Source of the DNA: Candidatus Bathyarchaeum sp.
GTDB taxonomy: Archaea; Thermoproteota; Bathyarchaeia; Bathyarchaeales; Bathyarchaeaceae
Direction of reading: 5' to 3'
Length of the DNA: 13,673 nt
NCBI GenBank assembly: GCA_026014495.1
Contig: JAOZIF010000073.1
Location: forward strand, 1 to 13,673
How positions within the stretch are numbered: position 1 is the first letter of the stretch; each line of letters opens with the position of its first letter. Positions 1 through 13,673 of this stretch are shown here, in pieces. Under the pieces are notes generated by a model, which had not been told where the DNA came from, did no database searches, and was given only the letters and a program-made list of their open reading frames with translations. The position numbers and the translations under genes were made by a program.

Positions 1-592
1 CGCCTATGGGCACATTAGTTGCTTGATAAGCTGTATAATCATAAGACAAAACTCTGTTTCTTAAAGTGCTAATTTTTCTCAACATTTGTTCAATTATTTT
101 CTTCTTGTTTAAAATTGGCTCTGCTTTGCTCATAATTTGCTTTTGCACATCATATTCTGGAATGTCAAAATCCATTGAATATAATTGGCGAGTCGTGAGT
201 GTTTTGGAACCTTCACTAACACTAGCTTCTTCAAGCTGTCTGTCGTAGAACAAGGTAAAAAATTGAGGGTCAATCAAGTTTTCAGAATCCTTTCTTACAC
301 GAAAGAATCCTGCATGATGGTTTAAGGCGAACCTCTTGTTTTGGACAAAGGTCATTTTCCCTGCACTGCCATCAAGACTTATGATTATTCCAGTACCTTT
401 GAAAATAGTTACTGGTTTGTTCTTTTTTGTTCTACCCTTTTCTGATAAAAAACTTGCGCCCTCAACATGTTCCTGTTGCCCTCCCCATAGAGGGACAAAA
501 CTTTCATTGTATTGAATAGATTTGTAAACAGCTTCGTCTGTAAGTGCAAAATCACCCTTCTTTACGGGTTCAAATAAGTCTAAGAACTTCAT
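1..592 (-). CDS. hsdS: Restriction-modification specificity (S) subunit, HsdS/BcgIB-like; C-terminal part lies beyond the left edge of the window
   Basis: Not in the ORF track; translated by hand. ATG at 592, 4 nt after the stop of the R-M fusion gene, and open for 197 codons to the window edge: MKFLDLFEPVKKGDFALTDEAVYKSIQ...IIISLDGSAGKMTFVQNKRFALNHHAGFF...IDPQFFTLFY...SMDFDIPEYDVQKQIMSKAEPILNKKKIIEQMLRKISTLRNRVL. This is a TRD followed by the conserved 'xPxxxxQxxI' helical spacer typical of HsdS. Confidence 0.88.
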   Translation of the reverse strand, partial: MKFLDLFEPVKKGDFALTDEAVYKSIQYNESFVPLWGGQQEHVEGASFLSEKGRTKKNKPVTIFKGTGIIISLDGSAGKMTFVQNKRFALNHHAGFFRVRKDSENLIDPQFFTLFYDRQLEEASVSEGSKTLTTRQLYSMDFDIPEYDVQKQIMSKAEPILNKKKIIEQMLRKISTLRNRVLSYDYTAYQATNVPIG

Positions 593-596
593 GCTG

Positions 597-2618
597 TTAC
601 GCCAATTTTTTCATTTCATTTTCGATTATTTTAATTTCTTGTTGCAATTGGTCTGGTGTTATAAAGTGCGGTGTGAATGGTCTCAAATAATATTCGGGCA
701 ATAAGCAACAATATGTTTTAGCGTCAGTAATTTTGGAAATACTTACAAAACCGCCTTTTCTTAATTTAACTGTCTCCCCTTTCTCATTAATCCACTCTGT
801 TCCGTTAGTTTTTTCATCATCAAATTGTAACCAATGTTCCTCAAGCAAACCCGTCATTTCTTCGCCTTCAGTACTAACCCATCCCGATATTTCATCATGC
901 ATCCAACCATTCCTGTTATTCCTAAGTTTAGTTGGAAAACGCTTGTCAGAGTTTGCGAGACCGTCATTATCTATGATATACATCCAAATTGGATTTTTCT
1001 GCTTTTTTGTTAATTTTTCGTTCTTTTTAGTCAAAAATACGGCATACATTTTTTCTTTTGTGTATGGTGCAAAAGCAAATTTCGGCAACGAAATTATTGC
1101 TTCAAGAATGCATTTCTCAAATAAATCTTCTCTTAATTTTTTAAAAGATGGATTTTCAAGAACACCATCTGGCAACAATATACAAGCTTTTCCACCATCC
1201 TCAAGTAATTTGATGACTTTATACAAGAACGCAATTTCAGTGCGGTTGGATGTTAACACTGATGTTTCTGCTTTGATTGTTCCTGCACCTACTGGTGGAT
1301 TTGTCATAATGTAACGCCATTTCTGGTTAGGTTCAAATTTCCATTCTGATAAAGCATTAAAAGCTTTCATGTGAGTATGTCCATCGCCAACTAAGAACAT
1401 GTTGAGTTTGGTTCTGGAAATATTTTCGCTTTTGACATCTATTCCCCAAAAGCAATCATTTTCAAGAAATTTCTGTGCTTCACGAGTTAGTGTGTTGGTT
1501 GAAAGATAGACATTTCTAAGGACTTTGAACCCTTCTGTTAAGAAGCCACCTGTTCCACATGCTGGGTCTAAAATGGTGAATTTAGCATTTTTATTGAAAT
1601 AACTCTCATTTTTTAGGAGTATTTTAGCAAAAATATGTGTATAATGTCTTCTTGTGAAGTATTCCCCAAATTCCTTTTTTTCTTTTGTATCAGCAAACAT
1701 CTCATATACTGCACCAAATAAATCGAAACCAGTGCCATGTAATGGTTTCATAGAATCTACAACATCATAGATTTGCTGAACAAATTCTTCATTGATGAGA
1801 GCTTTCTTTTCTTTTGTTCCTGTTATAATCACTCTTACTTTTTCCATCAGATTTGAAAATTCGCCAAATTGTTCTTGTTCCAATCTTGAAATGTATTTTG
1901 ATAATTTTGCCACTGTCTCTTCTGCCGTTGACTCAGCACAACCAGACCAGTATATTTTTGTTTTATCCAGTTTGCCTTTTTGTTGTTTTTCTCGTTCTTC
2001 AAAATATTCTAAAGAAATAATCCCAATTGTGAAATCAATTTTTTGAACGTTATTGTCAAAATTGATGTTACGATATATTTTTGCTAGTTCCCAAAGTTTC
2101 TTGTTAAAAACAGCTTCTGAAATTACTGAAAGAGAGTCAACATTAGTGAGAATGTTTTCCAGTGTTGGGTCTTTTGTGAGACGATTCTTAATTAATCGAA
2201 GTATGTCTATTGTCTGAAATTCTCGAACTGGGTTACCGTTGAGTTTTATTTCATTTCCTGTTTTGGCGTTATAGAATATGGTGACTTTACAATTTGTAAC
2301 AACAAAATATGGAAGTTTTAGTTTAGGTGCTTTAGAGAATCCTTGATTAATGGCGTCTTTCCAGTCTGTATCTCCAACAGCACAGTCATCTTTTACTTCT
2401 GCATAAGCCACCAAATTTTCAATAAATTGTTTTTCATTCTTTGTTGTTGGGTCATATTCAAATTCTGAGATGAGAAGGTCTGGTCGTTTTGAGCCAGTAT
2501 AGTCAACAAAAGTCGTGTCGTTAACGATTTGTCTTGAAGGAATACTAAGTTGGTTAACAAGAATTTCGTGTATAAATCGGTTAACAGATAGAGCTTCTTG
2601 CTTCTTTTTTCTAGCCAT
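597..2618 (-). CDS. Fused restriction endonuclease / N6-adenine DNA methyltransferase (Type IIB BcgIA-like or IIG), 673 aa
   Basis: N-terminal PD-(D/E)XK motif (KRPDLLIS...AYAEVKD), GEYFT motif X, SAM-binding motif I DPACGTGGFL, motif II GIDV, motif IV NPPV, motif VIII LPKFAF. The downstream S subunit is translationally adjacent. No HsdR helicase in the window. Confidence 0.9.
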   Translation of the reverse strand: MARKKKQEALSVNRFIHEILVNQLSIPSRQIVNDTTFVDYTGSKRPDLLISEFEYDPTTKNEKQFIENLVAYAEVKDDCAVGDTDWKDAINQGFSKAPKLKLPYFVVTNCKVTIFYNAKTGNEIKLNGNPVREFQTIDILRLIKNRLTKDPTLENILTNVDSLSVISEAVFNKKLWELAKIYRNINFDNNVQKIDFTIGIISLEYFEEREKQQKGKLDKTKIYWSGCAESTAEETVAKLSKYISRLEQEQFGEFSNLMEKVRVIITGTKEKKALINEEFVQQIYDVVDSMKPLHGTGFDLFGAVYEMFADTKEKKEFGEYFTRRHYTHIFAKILLKNESYFNKNAKFTILDPACGTGGFLTEGFKVLRNVYLSTNTLTREAQKFLENDCFWGIDVKSENISRTKLNMFLVGDGHTHMKAFNALSEWKFEPNQKWRYIMTNPPVGAGTIKAETSVLTSNRTEIAFLYKVIKLLEDGGKACILLPDGVLENPSFKKLREDLFEKCILEAIISLPKFAFAPYTKEKMYAVFLTKKNEKLTKKQKNPIWMYIIDNDGLANSDKRFPTKLRNNRNGWMHDEISGWVSTEGEEMTGLLEEHWLQFDDEKTNGTEWINEKGETVKLRKGGFVSISKITDAKTYCCLLPEYYLRPFTPHFITPDQLQQEIKIIENEMKKLA

Positions 2619-2758
2619 TACGACCCCACATTGTTGGGTTTTTTATTGTCGTACTTCTTGCATTATTAACGTCCATTTTGTCGATTTTCCAACCAAGTTT
2701 TCTATCTTTCACGCTTGGCGTAGTGTAATCGTTTCTTGTATATGTTTCTTGTCCATTA

Positions 2759-2800
2759 TCGTAACGTGTTACGAAAGTATTGAATTTAAGGTTTTCGTAA
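2759..2800. promoter_or_regulatory. Candidate operator: three TCGTAA/TTACGA half-sites forming overlapping inverted repeats
   Basis: TCGTAAC-GT-GTTACGA (2759-2774) and TTACGAAA(2769-2776)...TTTCGTAA(2793-2800), in the divergent intergenic region between the R-M operon and the AbrB gene. Confidence 0.55.
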
Positions 2801-2808
2801 GAGGTTAA

Positions 2809-2816
2809 TTTTTATA
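2809..2816 (+). promoter_or_regulatory. TATA box for the AbrB-like gene
   Basis: TTTTTATA about 30 nt upstream of the TTG start; GTGA RBS-like motif at 2837-2840. Confidence 0.5.
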
Positions 2817-2846
2817 CGAGTTATACTATTTTAGACGTGATTGAAA

Positions 2847-2999
2847 TTGAATAAGACGGTTTCGATAACAAAGGTCAGCAAGAAGGGGACAATTCATATA
2901 CCCACAGAATTGATGACCGAGCTAAAATTATCTGAAGGCGATAAAATACTCTGGAAATTAATGGGCAACAAAGCGGTTATTGAAAAGCTGTCTGAATAA
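2847..2999 (+). CDS. AbrB/MazE/SpoVT-family DNA-binding protein, 50 aa
   Basis: Not in the ORF track. TTG start (alternative in-frame TTG at 2841): MNKTVSITKVSKKGTIHIPTELMTELKLSEGDKILWKLMGNKAVIEKLSE. This matches the swapped-hairpin pattern 'xKVxxxGxIxIPxEL...LxLxEGDxVxW'. Confidence 0.88.
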   Translation: MNKTVSITKVSKKGTIHIPTELMTELKLSEGDKILWKLMGNKAVIEKLSE

Positions 3000-3041
3000 C
3001 CCCCATGCCCCTTTTCAGCGAAAATATTTTTTTAACAACAC

Positions 3042-3079
3042 TTTTCAAATATGGCTTGTTCCGAAAAGCTATTTGAGAA
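3042..3079 (+). repeat. Long imperfect hairpin downstream of the AbrB gene
   Basis: TTTTCAAATA(3042-3051)/TATTTGAGAA(3070-3079) with one G.U pair, a 2-nt bulge, then GCTT/AAGC. Confidence 0.55.
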
Positions 3080-3110
3080 CTCTTATTAAGAAGAAAAATG
3101 GCGAGTTTAC

Positions 3111-3200
3111 AGGGGAATTGGCTGAGAACAACGTCTTCTTCGGAAGTGCGTCTGTTACACCAACTCGGCTGATTCCCCACCCAAAAAAGAATTTTCTTTT
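3111..3200 (+). ncRNA. Candidate small structured RNA (about 90 nt), family unrecognised
   Basis: GGGGAATTGGCTGAG(3112-3126) pairs with CTCGGCTGATTCCCC(3164-3178): 15 bp, 12 Watson-Crick and 3 G.U. Then a 7-nt 3' bulge ACACCAA, AACA/TGTT, ACG/CGT and CTTC-TTCG-GAAG (C(UUCG)G tetraloop). TATA-like TTATTAAG at 3083-3090, about 25 nt upstream of the stem start, and a TTTTCTTTT tract at 3192-3200. Confidence 0.6.
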
Positions 3201-3378
3201 GTAAAGCGTCTTGGAATCCAGTCTTGAAAAAAACGCCCTTATGCGTCTTATGTAGAAAAAGCGTTTTTTGGACATATTTTAGCCAAAAAACCTGTTCTTT
3301 CATCCTCTTTTCATAAATGCTGAAAATTTGCCAATTTCATGGGAAATTAAGTTCTTTTTGGGCGTAATCTGAGGAATA

Positions 3379-3386
3379 TTTATAAG
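3379..3386 (+). promoter_or_regulatory. TATA box for the four-gene ATPase operon
   Basis: TTTATAAG(G), identical to the box at 7599; GGTG RBS at 3409-3412 before ATG 3419. Confidence 0.65.
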
Positions 3387-3418
3387 GTGTTTTGTTCCCG
3401 TTCCTAGCGGTGTAACAG

Positions 3419-3556
3419 ATGCATAGGAAAGATAGAGTCAAGTCTAGCGAAGCTTTGAGGCTAATTTTTAGGACTCTGTTTTCTGAGCCTAGCCCAGAAG
3501 TTTCGTATCGGAATCTCTGGAAGATTCCACAAAACGAATTCGGGAGAGCAAAATAA
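3419..3556 (+). CDS. Small hypothetical protein, 45 aa
   Basis: Not in the ORF track. MHRKDRVKSSEALRLIFRTLFSEPSPEVSYRNLWKIPQNEFGRAK. Has a TATA box and GGTG RBS upstream, and a TAATG stop/start overlap with the next gene. Confidence 0.6.
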   Translation: MHRKDRVKSSEALRLIFRTLFSEPSPEVSYRNLWKIPQNEFGRAK

Positions 3557-3957
3557 TGAAGTCCTGCACTTTGTACAAAATCCGAGAAACCGTTAACACT
3601 CTCTCAACTGACACAGAAGCCACACAGAAAGCAGTAAACGAAATTGAGGACGCAATCCAGAAAGACGCAGAGTATAACGGATACTCAAATTATGAAACTT
3701 GGCTGATGTCCCTTAATCTCGACAATGACCAGTACCTCAATGAGCGAGTTATGGAGATTGCTAACGGATGCGGGGACACCTACGACAAAGCACAGGAACT
3801 TAAGGAATTCATTGAATCTGAGTTCTACGTGGAGGAGTACGGAATTTACAAAATCTCGGACATCTGGACAGAGCGAGACTTTCAAGAAATCGACTTTGCC
3901 GAAATCATAGAGAGCCACTTAGACGAATCATACGCAACTGAAGAGGACGAGGACTAA
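3556..3957 (+). CDS. Highly acidic hypothetical protein, 133 aa, with a YNGxxNYETW...LxxDND motif
   Basis: Hand count 35 D/E versus 10 K/R. TAATG overlaps at both ends. The motif resembles one I recall from phage hypothetical proteins (unverified). Confidence 0.85.
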   Translation: MKSCTLYKIRETVNTLSTDTEATQKAVNEIEDAIQKDAEYNGYSNYETWLMSLNLDNDQYLNERVMEIANGCGDTYDKAQELKEFIESEFYVEEYGIYKISDIWTERDFQEIDFAEIIESHLDESYATEEDED

Positions 3958-4121
3958 TGAAAGCGCAGATTCTAAACTACGCAGTACCACACAGCAAAAA
4001 GAAGCTTCTGTTAGTTGGCAACGGTAATCCGTCTTCAGTGTTTGCGATTCAGTTAGGTAAGACGTTCACACCTAAAGACGCAGAGCAAATAATCAAAGCA
4101 GTTAACACAGGACAGTTCTAA
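3957..4121 (+). CDS. Small hypothetical protein, 54 aa
   Basis: Not in the ORF track. MKAQILNYAVPHSKKKLLLVGNGNPSSVFAIQLGKTFTPKDAEQIIKAVNTGQF. Fills the gap exactly: TAATG overlap upstream, stop 2 nt before the ATPase TTG. Confidence 0.75.
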   Translation: MKAQILNYAVPHSKKKLLLVGNGNPSSVFAIQLGKTFTPKDAEQIIKAVNTGQF

Positions 4122-4123
4122 GC

Positions 4124-5224
4124 TTGTCTTTCTCTCCCTCAATCTTCGACAAATTGTACATTGATATTTTGGAAAGGGGAGGGATTCATACTATCGGCAC
4201 CAAGCAAGTCGGGAAAAGTAACCTCAAAAAGTCGCTGACCGCTTACACGATAAACAAGCATCCAGAGACTAAAACCGTCATAATCGACCCAGAAGGTAGT
4301 TGGCAATACACCTTTAGCAAAGTCCCGTTTTACCGAATCTTACCCAACACTGTTAAGATTTCTGAAGAAATCACAGGACAAAGGTTAAACGGTTCTAATT
4401 TTACCCGAAAAGTTTACAAAATCGAGGAAACAACAAAACAGGACTGTTTACGGCTTCTAGAATCAAAAGAACCCGTATTATTCATTGTTGAACTTGAAAC
4501 ACCCGAAGAAATCGGCTTTTTTTCAGCGTGGATAATTGAAACAATCTACCAAAAACAGAGAATCCTAAGAAAGTACCATAAAGGCAACTTGCCGAAAAGC
4601 TACTTTGTGGTTCTGGAAGAGTCGGAAAACATCTTCGATAATAGCTCACTTGACAAGTCGATTTTTAACAAGCTCCGCAAAAAATACGCAGAGTGCGCTA
4701 ACCTCAAAATAGGCATTCTTAGCAGTTCGCAGAGATTGACGGAAGTTAGCAAGAAGTTCCGTGCAAAGATGGCGGGGTACTTAGTCGGGCACATTCTAGA
4801 GGACGATTTCATAGGACTACTGCAACGTATGCTTAAAATCAAACTAAAGAAAGACGCTGAAAAGGTAACAGGCCCGCAATTCAGATATTCCTTTTTCTAC
4901 ACAGGACTTAATCAGACGTTCAAAGTTCCTCGATTCGAGCAAGAAGGCACACCCTATGAAGTGCCAAGAACCGAACCCGACCCACAACCCGAACCAAAGG
5001 AGGAAACAATCAAATTGAAAAGGCAAGTCAAGAAGCCAAGTCTTAGGGAGCGACTTAAGCACCTGTGGCGCAGATTCGTTTCTTTCCCTATTCCAGTCAA
5101 TGACGAACCCACAAATCAAATAACCTACACAGAAGACGAACCCGAAGACTTGAATGTTTTACTTGCAGAGGATAACGAACAGCTAGACGAAAGTCTGTTT
5201 AGTGACGAATCAGAAGACGATTAA
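4124..5224 (+). CDS. HerA/FtsK-superfamily P-loop ATPase, 366 aa
   Basis: Walker A GTKQVGKS, 'VIIDPEGSW' strand, Walker B variant YFVVLEESE, 'SSSQRL' glutamine-sensor/arginine motif. C-terminus has a Pro-rich linker, a basic amphipathic segment and an acidic tail. Confidence 0.85.
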   Translation: MSFSPSIFDKLYIDILERGGIHTIGTKQVGKSNLKKSLTAYTINKHPETKTVIIDPEGSWQYTFSKVPFYRILPNTVKISEEITGQRLNGSNFTRKVYKIEETTKQDCLRLLESKEPVLFIVELETPEEIGFFSAWIIETIYQKQRILRKYHKGNLPKSYFVVLEESENIFDNSSLDKSIFNKLRKKYAECANLKIGILSSSQRLTEVSKKFRAKMAGYLVGHILEDDFIGLLQRMLKIKLKKDAEKVTGPQFRYSFFYTGLNQTFKVPRFEQEGTPYEVPRTEPDPQPEPKEETIKLKRQVKKPSLRERLKHLWRRFVSFPIPVNDEPTNQITYTEDEPEDLNVLLAEDNEQLDESLFSDESEDD

Positions 5225-12292: not shown

Positions 12293-13525
12293 TTAGTTTT
12301 CTTCAGCTTCTTTCTGTTTCCGTTTTCTGATTTCCTCTTGTGTTTCAACCGTTACCTCAAATTCGCCTTTCGCCACAAGCTCTAGCATATGCTCTAACTT
12401 TTCGTAGTTTGTCTTAAGCAGTTCAATTTCCTGTTTCTGTCCCTCAATTTCCGCTTTCTGTTTCTCGTTTTCTTCGCCAATCTGGGAAAGCAATTTTGCT
12501 TGTGTCAGTTGTGTGGTTCTCAAATCCTGTATGTCTTTTCGGTTCTGGATACCGTTTATTGTTAAGAACTGGAAAGTTCTTTCATAAGATTCTTTGATAG
12601 TCGGTTCATCATAATCGTAGTTTGCTCTTGCGCCTCTGCGCTTGTGACCCATCATAGCGTCTTTCAGTTCTTGCGGTTGAATGTTTGCTCTCAACAGTGC
12701 GCTATTGTAAGAGCTTCTTAGGCTTTTGGTTTTGAATTCCTGTACTCTTTCTTCCCCAAAAGCTCTTTCAACCAATCCCCGAATTGCTTCATGTACTGCT
12801 CTGACCTTCAATCGTGTTCCTGTTTGTATTGTTGTTGAAACGAAAATGAATCCTTCTTGTGGGTTGCCCATTTCTTGAAGTAATGCTTTGATGTCGTGAA
12901 CGCATTCAAAACTTAAGCATGTGGATTGAATGTTTCCCGTTTTTTCTCTCGGCTTTTCTATGAAAAAGTGTTCGCCTTCTGGACAATCGTAAAGTCCCAT
13001 CAAATCTTCAATTCTGAGGTTCACAGCATCGATTTCGGATAATCCGCTCTGATACAGACACAAAAGAAGTGCCCTGTCTCTCAAGTTGGCATGACTGTAC
13101 ATTTTCCGTATTTCTTCATTTGTGGGAGTCCATCTTTGACGGATTGCTCTCTGTGTTTGTGTTGTTTCCCAATCTCCACGCTTTAGCACTAAAGGTAAAC
13201 TGTTTCGTGCAAAAAAGCTAGCAACTGTTTTGAGGTAAGCTTTGATTGATGCGTCACTCAGGGTACCTTTTTCTTCCATAAACGCTTTGTATTCTCTCCA
13301 TTTGCTTTCAAAAAAGAATCTCTGTGTTAAATCTGGACTTATGGTATCCTGTATTCTTTTCTGGATTTGCTCGGTTGGAGTCATGACCACAAAGTCGAGC
13401 CAGTCTTTGAATGCGAAAATGTAGTTTCTCTTTGTTTTTTCCGCTAATCCCACTAGCCATTTCTGTACATATTCATCTCTGAGGTAGTTTCGTTGAATGT
13501 ATGCTTTTCTTCCCCTAGTTTCCAA
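12293..13525 (-). CDS. int: Tyrosine recombinase/integrase, 410 aa, with a C-terminal coiled-coil
   Basis: 'RDRALLLCLYQSGLSEIDAVNLRIED', 'REKTG', 'KSLR', 'MMGH' and 'ANY' motifs. The track's GTG (13534) is part of a GAGGTGA RBS, so the start was moved to TTG 13525. Confidence 0.9.
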   Translation of the reverse strand: METRGRKAYIQRNYLRDEYVQKWLVGLAEKTKRNYIFAFKDWLDFVVMTPTEQIQKRIQDTISPDLTQRFFFESKWREYKAFMEEKGTLSDASIKAYLKTVASFFARNSLPLVLKRGDWETTQTQRAIRQRWTPTNEEIRKMYSHANLRDRALLLCLYQSGLSEIDAVNLRIEDLMGLYDCPEGEHFFIEKPREKTGNIQSTCLSFECVHDIKALLQEMGNPQEGFIFVSTTIQTGTRLKVRAVHEAIRGLVERAFGEERVQEFKTKSLRSSYNSALLRANIQPQELKDAMMGHKRRGARANYDYDEPTIKESYERTFQFLTINGIQNRKDIQDLRTTQLTQAKLLSQIGEENEKQKAEIEGQKQEIELLKTNYEKLEHMLELVAKGEFEVTVETQEEIRKRKQKEAEEN

Positions 13526-13563
13526 AGTTATCACCTCTGTATTGTCTTTTTGTCTTCATAAAC

Positions 13564-13582: not shown

Positions 13583-13673
13583 TTTTTTTCTGGGGAATTA
13601 AGCGTCTAGAACATACTCTCCATATTAGGAGACTAATAGAGGTACATTGTTGAAAACTAGGTTTTTTCAGAAA

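Follow-up and report, generated by a model that had tools for sequence, protein, structure and literature searches.

A conserved hairpin beside the DUF7249/HerA-like operon of a Bathyarchaeia mobile element: a new RNA family with a predicted antisense target at the operon's messenger start

The question raised by this locus is whether a hairpin present between positions 3083 and 3200 of the window (viz. the whole stretch of 13,673 nucleotides from contig JAOZIF010000073.1 of Candidatus Bathyarchaeum sp. that was analysed here) is the RNA gene that it resembles and, if so, with what it pairs. An earlier note on this DNA, made from the sequence alone, had read the feature as a small RNA gene borne by an element and had suggested a number of partners for it. 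The feature at 3083-3200 is real and its structure is more than a chance occurrence, because it has been kept, with compensatory changes, in nine homologues. Judged by comparison of these sequences, the hairpin is a new RNA family with a well-supported predicted target, for which the best reading is the messenger start of the adjacent operon (3409-3424). The earlier interpretation is therefore supported in part: the RNA gene stands, whereas the partners proposed for it, and an alternative pairing within it, do not.

The body of the predicted small RNA (3112-3178, + strand) consists of 67 bases, comprising a 15-bp clamp stem, a 7-nt bulge, an interrupted upper stem and an apical loop. As can be read in the window, the basal stem is formed by the pairing of 3112-3126 with 3164-3178, three G.U pairs included; the bulge ACACCAA (3157-3163, + strand) is one-sided and unpaired in every predicted fold, and the upper part is made up of three short stacked stems capped by a UUCG loop at 3139-3142. 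The folding energy of 3112-3178 is -32.5 kcal/mol (z -4.98), that of the minus strand being -20.5 kcal/mol, and for 3083-3200 it is -37.4 kcal/mol (z -4.18), with none of 200 shuffles as stable; in two of the homologues described below (G020 and G013), the stability of the fold is about equal on both strands. The stem, bulge, stacked stems, UUCG loop and T-tract described in the earlier note all lie where it had placed them. However, these details, although all present in the window, are not all general: the UUCG loop is not kept in other members, which have UUAG, UUAU, UUCU or a shorter loop, and G020 and L066 lack the T-tract after the hairpin. The core of the bulge, unlike the apical UUCG, is conserved among the homologues.

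The earlier note did not recognise the family of this RNA, and a scan of the whole window with Rfam 15 likewise yielded zero matches at gathering thresholds, the C4 antisense RNA family included; with E values of up to 10 on 2950-3560, just two chance-level matches to unrelated eukaryotic families were seen. Neither a tRNA nor a tmRNA was found in the window by ARAGORN. By reading, the hairpin sequences contain no UGAUGA box of the kind seen in C/D-box guide RNAs, and with regard to H/ACA guide RNAs, the bases after the stem are neither ACA nor conserved and the bulge is one-sided. A conserved coding frame in the hairpin is excluded by indels of 1 nt and 3 nt between the homologues.

Ten distinct hairpin sequences were obtained from Bathyarchaeia genomes and metagenomes. 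When the hairpin was compared by BLAST with 60 relatives, G020 alone matched, a pattern scan of metagenomes identified a second copy on Ga0265594_1010327, and covariance models built from these copies turned up the remaining homologues. They include G013, from the same genus, and G372, from another family of the same order, in both of which the hairpin is found upstream of distant ATPase homologues; five copies reached via homologues of the DUF7249 protein (viz. L066, L060, L062/L063, L067 and L069); and G006 with the identical contig L061, where the match is weaker and lies on the strand opposite to the operon. A covariance model run over 150 genomes of the order yielded nothing more outside the genus, no further copies of the G006-type hairpin were found in 400 genomes, the viral contig collection gave no match either by pattern or by ATPase protein, and the hairpin was not found in L070, a DUF7249 locus adjoining an integrase. 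Both BLAST and the covariance model find the hairpin to be single-copy in the 2.19-Mb assembly (93% complete). The identity of this sequence as a MITE or other dispersed repeat, which would be present in many copies, is ruled out by the presence of a single copy in this assembly.

Covariation among homologues had been recommended earlier as a check on the RNA, and compensatory changes are found. In an alignment of nine sequences fitted to the covariance model, a procedure that favours structure (the margin is still large), 91.5% of the cells form standard pairs, and changes on both sides have occurred at 12 of the 26 stem pairs (25 cells). Not one of 500 shuffles reached any of the five stem measures, and in a control where the partners were slid by 1-3 columns at most 5 both-sided cells were seen. 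On the + strand, 19 of the non-Watson-Crick stem cells are G.U versus 6 that are A.C, which points to a single strand of + sense, as the earlier note had also preferred over a DNA cruciform. These comparisons indicate that the fold of the hairpin is under selection. The alternative pairing of TTGG (3118-3121) with the CCAA of the bulge finds no such support, as TTGG varies among the homologues, CCAA is constant and the two do not covary.

The putative RNA gene has a predicted promoter of its own at the proper distance. Its predicted TATA box, TTATTAAG (3083-3090, + strand), is located 29 nt before the first G of the stem, and each of the ten loci has a TATA-like octamer, as read from the sequence, at 29-33 nt before the stem; in the inverted copy of the G006 type this is a different TATA box, 31 nt upstream in the orientation of that copy. 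The segment 3063-3082 (+ strand), which directly precedes the TATA box and is conserved and aligned in all same-type homologues, is probably an upstream promoter element, and the small RNA would start near 3110-3113. The covarying stems and the predicted promoter seen in 10 of 10 loci bear out the proposal of a stand-alone, element-borne RNA gene with a TATA box. More than one 3' end is conceivable for the RNA, because the T-tract after the hairpin is not conserved. In the window, this tract (3192-3200, + strand) is a candidate terminator that would give an RNA of about 85 nt, and in most homologues it is T4-T5. About 85-95 nt downstream of this tract, 8 of 9 loci share a run of T5-T6 at corresponding positions of the alignment, and in the window this T6 run (3264-3269, + strand) is an alternative candidate terminator, which would give an RNA of about 155 nt. 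The predicted length of the RNA is accordingly either of these two values.

Two other motifs occur in the vicinity. A tandem CTTATG(N3)CTTATGT at 3238-3253, followed by the T6 run, is kept in all homologues including G006, where it retains the orientation of the operon in spite of the inversion of the hairpin gene. This motif resembles an operator or iteron of the operon control region. A AAATTTGCCAATTTCATGG-type motif at 3324-3342 lies about 40 nt before the operon TATA box and is found in 6 of the 9 aligned loci as well as in G006. A weaker look-alike is located about 65 nt before the stem of the RNA gene, and this motif may be a shared regulator site.

Besides the operon that follows it, no other gene in the window travels with the hairpin. 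The predicted TATA box of this operon, TTTATAAG, is located at 3379-3386 (+ strand), and its first cistron (3419-3556, + strand) encodes a basic protein of 45 aa, which is supported by its translation and by homologues. This conserved ORF, which is too short for the default ORF list, overlaps the start of the DUF7249 gene (TAATG), and the homologues of its product have a basic N-terminus in common. The rest of the operon (3556-5224, + strand) encodes the DUF7249 protein, a 54-aa protein and a HerA/DUF87-like ATPase. The same four genes adjoin every hairpin homologue, and the linkage holds even where the ATPase exhibits only 27-29% identity (G013, G372 and L066). The left flank of the RNA gene, in contrast, differs in every locus, consisting of AbrB and a Type I R-M system in the window, an AlbA_2 gene in G020, a large methyltransferase-nuclease and a TIR gene in L066, and the host mgtE gene in a metagenome contig. 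The earlier note had suggested that the RNA was an antitoxin for a HEPN RNase or a regulator of the R-M/AbrB unit. Both partners are rejected because the HEPN-like gene, and likewise the R-M and AbrB genes, are absent from every other hairpin locus that was fetched; one further contig, outside the fetched loci, has a MazE/AbrB-type gene upstream. As for the third suggestion of the note, an anti-defence decoy, no observation made here favours it.

Several observations concern the element as a whole. The slot beside the RNA gene and operon is variable and often holds defence-type genes (window 1-3000; L009 8259-9389; L066 1-4439; L065 3165-4073), examples of which are Type I R-M, AlbA_2/Schlafen, a large methyltransferase-nuclease, and ThsB-like and CAP12-type TIR proteins. 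In the metagenome contig L041 (4414-4663), about 250 nt separate the RNA gene from the start of the host mgtE gene, which is syntenic in two element-free genomes, and a left junction of the element between 4521 and 4609 is possible. An integrase gene is present in the window at 12293-13534. No PF00589 integrase was found on the 310-kb contig of G020 (L009, contig 2), where the related element lies at 188-207 kb, and this element may be a remnant or a user of another recombinase. A direct repeat of part of the hairpin region next to the integrase, such as an attachment site at the end of the integrated element would show, was not found in the window, which stops 139 nt beyond the integrase gene and within a dispersed repeat. 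The last 53 bases (13621-13673) belong to this repeat, which is present in about 100 copies across the assembly, in both orientations and with 82-100% identity, though not in the arrangement of a CRISPR array, and which probably explains the end of the contig at 13,673. A k-mer scan detected no CRISPR array in the assembly, hence there is no host repeat with which the hairpin could be compared as a possible CRISPR-repeat mimic (RNA anti-CRISPR).

The evidence on the partner of the RNA comes from the start of the operon. The segment 3146-3161 (+ strand), made up of the 3' strand of the upper stem and the first five bases of the bulge, is the reverse complement of 3409-3424 (+ strand), giving 16 contiguous pairs that cover the ATG (3419-3421) of the 45-aa cistron. 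The target is offset by two bases relative to the bulge and extends into the stem, and a perfect complement of the whole 7-nt bulge was not found elsewhere in the window. As read from the flanks, the distance from the first base of the operon TATA box to that of the complementary stretch is exactly 30 nt in each of the ten loci, and due to this fixed spacing the target is predicted to be the 5' end of the mRNA, with a leader of about 10 nt.

Complementarity of 15-22 nt to the start region of the first gene is seen in 10 of 10 loci. Over the first 15 positions the ten duplexes contain 140 Watson-Crick pairs, 5 G.U, 1 A.C and 4 other combinations, counts which are not independent events, the loci being related. 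Where the bulge has changed (L062, L069 and G006), the target has changed to match, and in two loci a one-base insertion is present on both the RNA and the target sides. Each RNA also pairs best with its own target, the mean for the ten loci being -26.2 kcal/mol for cognate and -13.1 kcal/mol for non-cognate combinations, and in a permutation test with 200,000 random re-pairings the cognate mean was never attained. When the 16-pair long-range helix was scored on a plain MAFFT alignment of the whole interval, which is not fitted to structure and has two rows partly out of register, 88.8% of it was paired, with 8 of the 16 pairs and 20 cells changed on both sides; its covariation score is 0.418 versus 0.174 for the shuffles, of which 0 of 500 reached it. 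Scanning of 25 distant ATPase loci revealed no comparable contiguous complement of a gene start. In a genome-wide target scan the operon site is level with the best non-self site, as an unrelated intragenic site ties with it at -28.4 kcal/mol; the remaining sites of low energy contain gaps and fall within coding regions.

If the clamp stem stays closed while the upper stem opens, the net binding energy is -7 to -21 kcal/mol, and the cost of opening the mRNA at the target, a region with little structure of its own, is 0-5 kcal/mol. The net values come from an opening-energy calculation, since RNAcofold, which gave small gains, does not allow for helices that cross each other, as the clamp stem and the intermolecular helix do. 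A duplex of 16 bp formed within a stem-closed loop needs threading, which is plausible only with a target at a free 5' end, as is predicted here.

On the basis of these results, we consider it probable, with a likelihood of roughly two in three, that the hairpin is an element-encoded antisense RNA that represses the core operon by pairing with the start of its mRNA. According to this proposal, the small RNA would be transcribed from an archaeal promoter of its own, located on a mobile element that is integrated in a Bathyarchaeia genome, and its 15-bp basal stem would serve as a clamp presenting the 7-nt bulge and the weaker, interrupted upper stem. The bulge, with its first five bases as the seed, would nucleate pairing with the first bases of the operon mRNA, and the helix would then spread along the 3' strand of the upper stem, displacing this weak stem, to form about 16 bp over the short leader and the AUG. 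Loading of ribosomes on the first cistron would thereby be blocked, and because the cistrons overlap or abut, the output of the whole operon (45-aa protein, DUF7249, 54-aa protein and HerA-like ATPase) would be lowered. As the dose of the RNA would follow the copy number of the element, its role may lie in control of copy number or activity, or in immunity against related incoming elements, each element lineage having its own matching pair of RNA and target. The transcription of the RNA, its action in trans, repression and the biological role are what we infer from the sequences.

If the RNA and its target were parts of a single transcript, then the pairing could act in cis. Such a leader switch, in which transcripts from upstream would read through the T-tracts and the 3' strand of the upper stem would pair either with the hairpin or with the start region, thereby setting translation, fits the complementarity data equally well. 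The RNA and the operon share a strand in nine of the ten loci, with 158-230 nt between them, and some loci have a weak T-tract, or none, just behind the hairpin. We consider it unlikely, however, since the hairpin is separated from the operon by a conserved T5-T6 run in 8 of 9 loci, a TATA box belonging to the operon itself stands at a constant 30 nt from the target, and the inverted arrangement of G006/L061 is incompatible with action in cis. This last arrangement, in which the RNA gene points the opposite way to the operon and its RNA is nevertheless complementary to the mRNA, is of one sequence type only, present in two assemblies. It argues for action of the predicted RNA in trans, because with this orientation the pairing could not take place inside a single transcript. 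For the remaining nine loci a contribution in cis is possible.

The formation of the predicted duplex should likewise not be equated at once with repression, as the same pairing evidence would apply if it protected the 5' end of the mRNA, guided its processing or activated its translation. Some antisense RNAs do activate, an example being Asr9 of ISPpu9, which is proposed to open a structure in the leader (PMC8450116). However, in the present case the duplex would span the AUG itself and the whole of the short leader, and with an opening cost of 0-5 kcal/mol there is little structure in the target to open; a non-repressive outcome is thus quite improbable, and repression, rather than activation or processing, is indicated by the masking of the AUG. 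We give even less credence to a purely DNA-level element, where the hairpin and its copy at the operon start would be protein-binding repeats, a single-strand origin or a recombination site at the edge of the element. It is true that the unit forms the left edge of the conserved module, with genome-specific flanks, in one case with host mgtE, that iteron-like tandem repeats are nearby (3238-3253), and that in G020 and G013 both strands fold about equally. Against this, the mismatches are predominantly, and by a wide margin, G.U in the RNA sense (19:6 for the hairpin and 5:1 for the long-range helix), the TATA box keeps its spacing even in the inverted copy, the sequence of the repeat varies freely between close relatives while the complementarity is kept, the other end of the window has no direct repeat of the region, and no HUH Rep protein was found. 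Lastly, the masking of the start of a small ORF by an adjoining RNA is reminiscent of a type I toxin-antitoxin, in which the 45-aa first cistron would be a toxin checked by an adjacent, non-overlapping antisense RNA, as in tisB/IstR-1. This is highly improbable, as the 45-aa protein is by inspection basic and without a long hydrophobic stretch, its ORF overlaps the next start, and three further conserved genes are always found downstream.

The proposed antisense repression has implications for the elements that carry the RNA. The ten loci gave nine different RNA-target specificities, and it is conceivable, although we regard this as tentative and somewhat doubtful, that these pairs represent mutually non-cross-reacting types, viz. 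an RNA-based code of immunity or incompatibility. If this is true, then the specificity code would determine which of the related elements are able to live together in a Bathyarchaeia cell or to invade it, and it would be an archaeal counterpart of P1/P7 heteroimmunity, in which a clamp-and-bulge RNA attacks the 5' end of a nearly leaderless mRNA. In addition, the matched RNA-target types offer a simple means by which element lineages, and possibly their incompatibility, could be classified, and the DUF7249/HerA-like operon is marked as the probable regulated core of this family of elements. The Bathyarchaeia are an abundant, uncultured lineage of sediments, the regulation of whose mobile elements is essentially uncharted, and our literature search found no report on small RNAs of these elements. 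As the predicted fold, promoter, target and mode of action of the RNA rest on covariation and not on a single sequence, the family is ready for curation of the Rfam type.

The predicted mechanism is of a known kind, although the RNA family is new. Its nearest analogue appears to be the c4 RNA of phages P1 and P7 (immI operon c4-icd-ant), together with the CI RNA of P4. These are short structured RNAs encoded just upstream of their target, on the same strand and without overlap, in which bases exposed in loops pair with the ribosome-binding region of a first, translationally coupled gene, and in which RNA-target covariation between related elements defines the immunity types. The c4 antisense RNA of P1 and P7 was reportedly described by Citron and Schuster in 1990 and 1992. 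It acts in trans to repress the synthesis of Ant (PMC8546580). The Bathyarchaeia RNA is similarly short, structured, upstream of its target, non-overlapping and covarying with it. However, it differs from c4 in its archaeal host and TATA-type promoter, and exhibits no similarity to it in sequence or by model. Further, it would be made from its own promoter, whereas c4 is processed from the operon transcript; its predicted seed is a stem-internal bulge instead of hairpin loops, its target would be the extreme 5' end of a short-leader mRNA, and its gene can lie in the opposite orientation to the operon.

Plasmids are also known to encode structured RNAs with a dose that depends on copy number (viz. 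CopA of R1, RNA I of ColE1 and RNAI of pT181), where exposed bases start the pairing, a replication function is repressed and the specificity of incompatibility is defined. These copy-control RNAs are encoded opposite to, and overlap, their targets, whereas the Bathyarchaeia RNA gene is separate, with a complementarity of about 16 nt. In tisB/IstR-1 and zorO/OrzO, a neighbouring RNA gene is complementary, over about 20 nt, to the 5' region of the mRNA of a small ORF. An adjoining RNA gene with this kind of complementarity is seen here as well, but the small ORF is not hydrophobic and it heads a conserved four-gene operon. Among archaea, a single-stranded region of sRNA162 of Methanosarcina mazei pairs with an mRNA and masks its ribosome-binding site (PMC3510493). 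The proposed masking of a translation start by a small archaeal RNA is common to both cases, although sRNA162 is chromosomal, regulates metabolism, has an unstructured linker as its seed and a target inside a bicistronic mRNA, and is unrelated in sequence to the RNA family described here.
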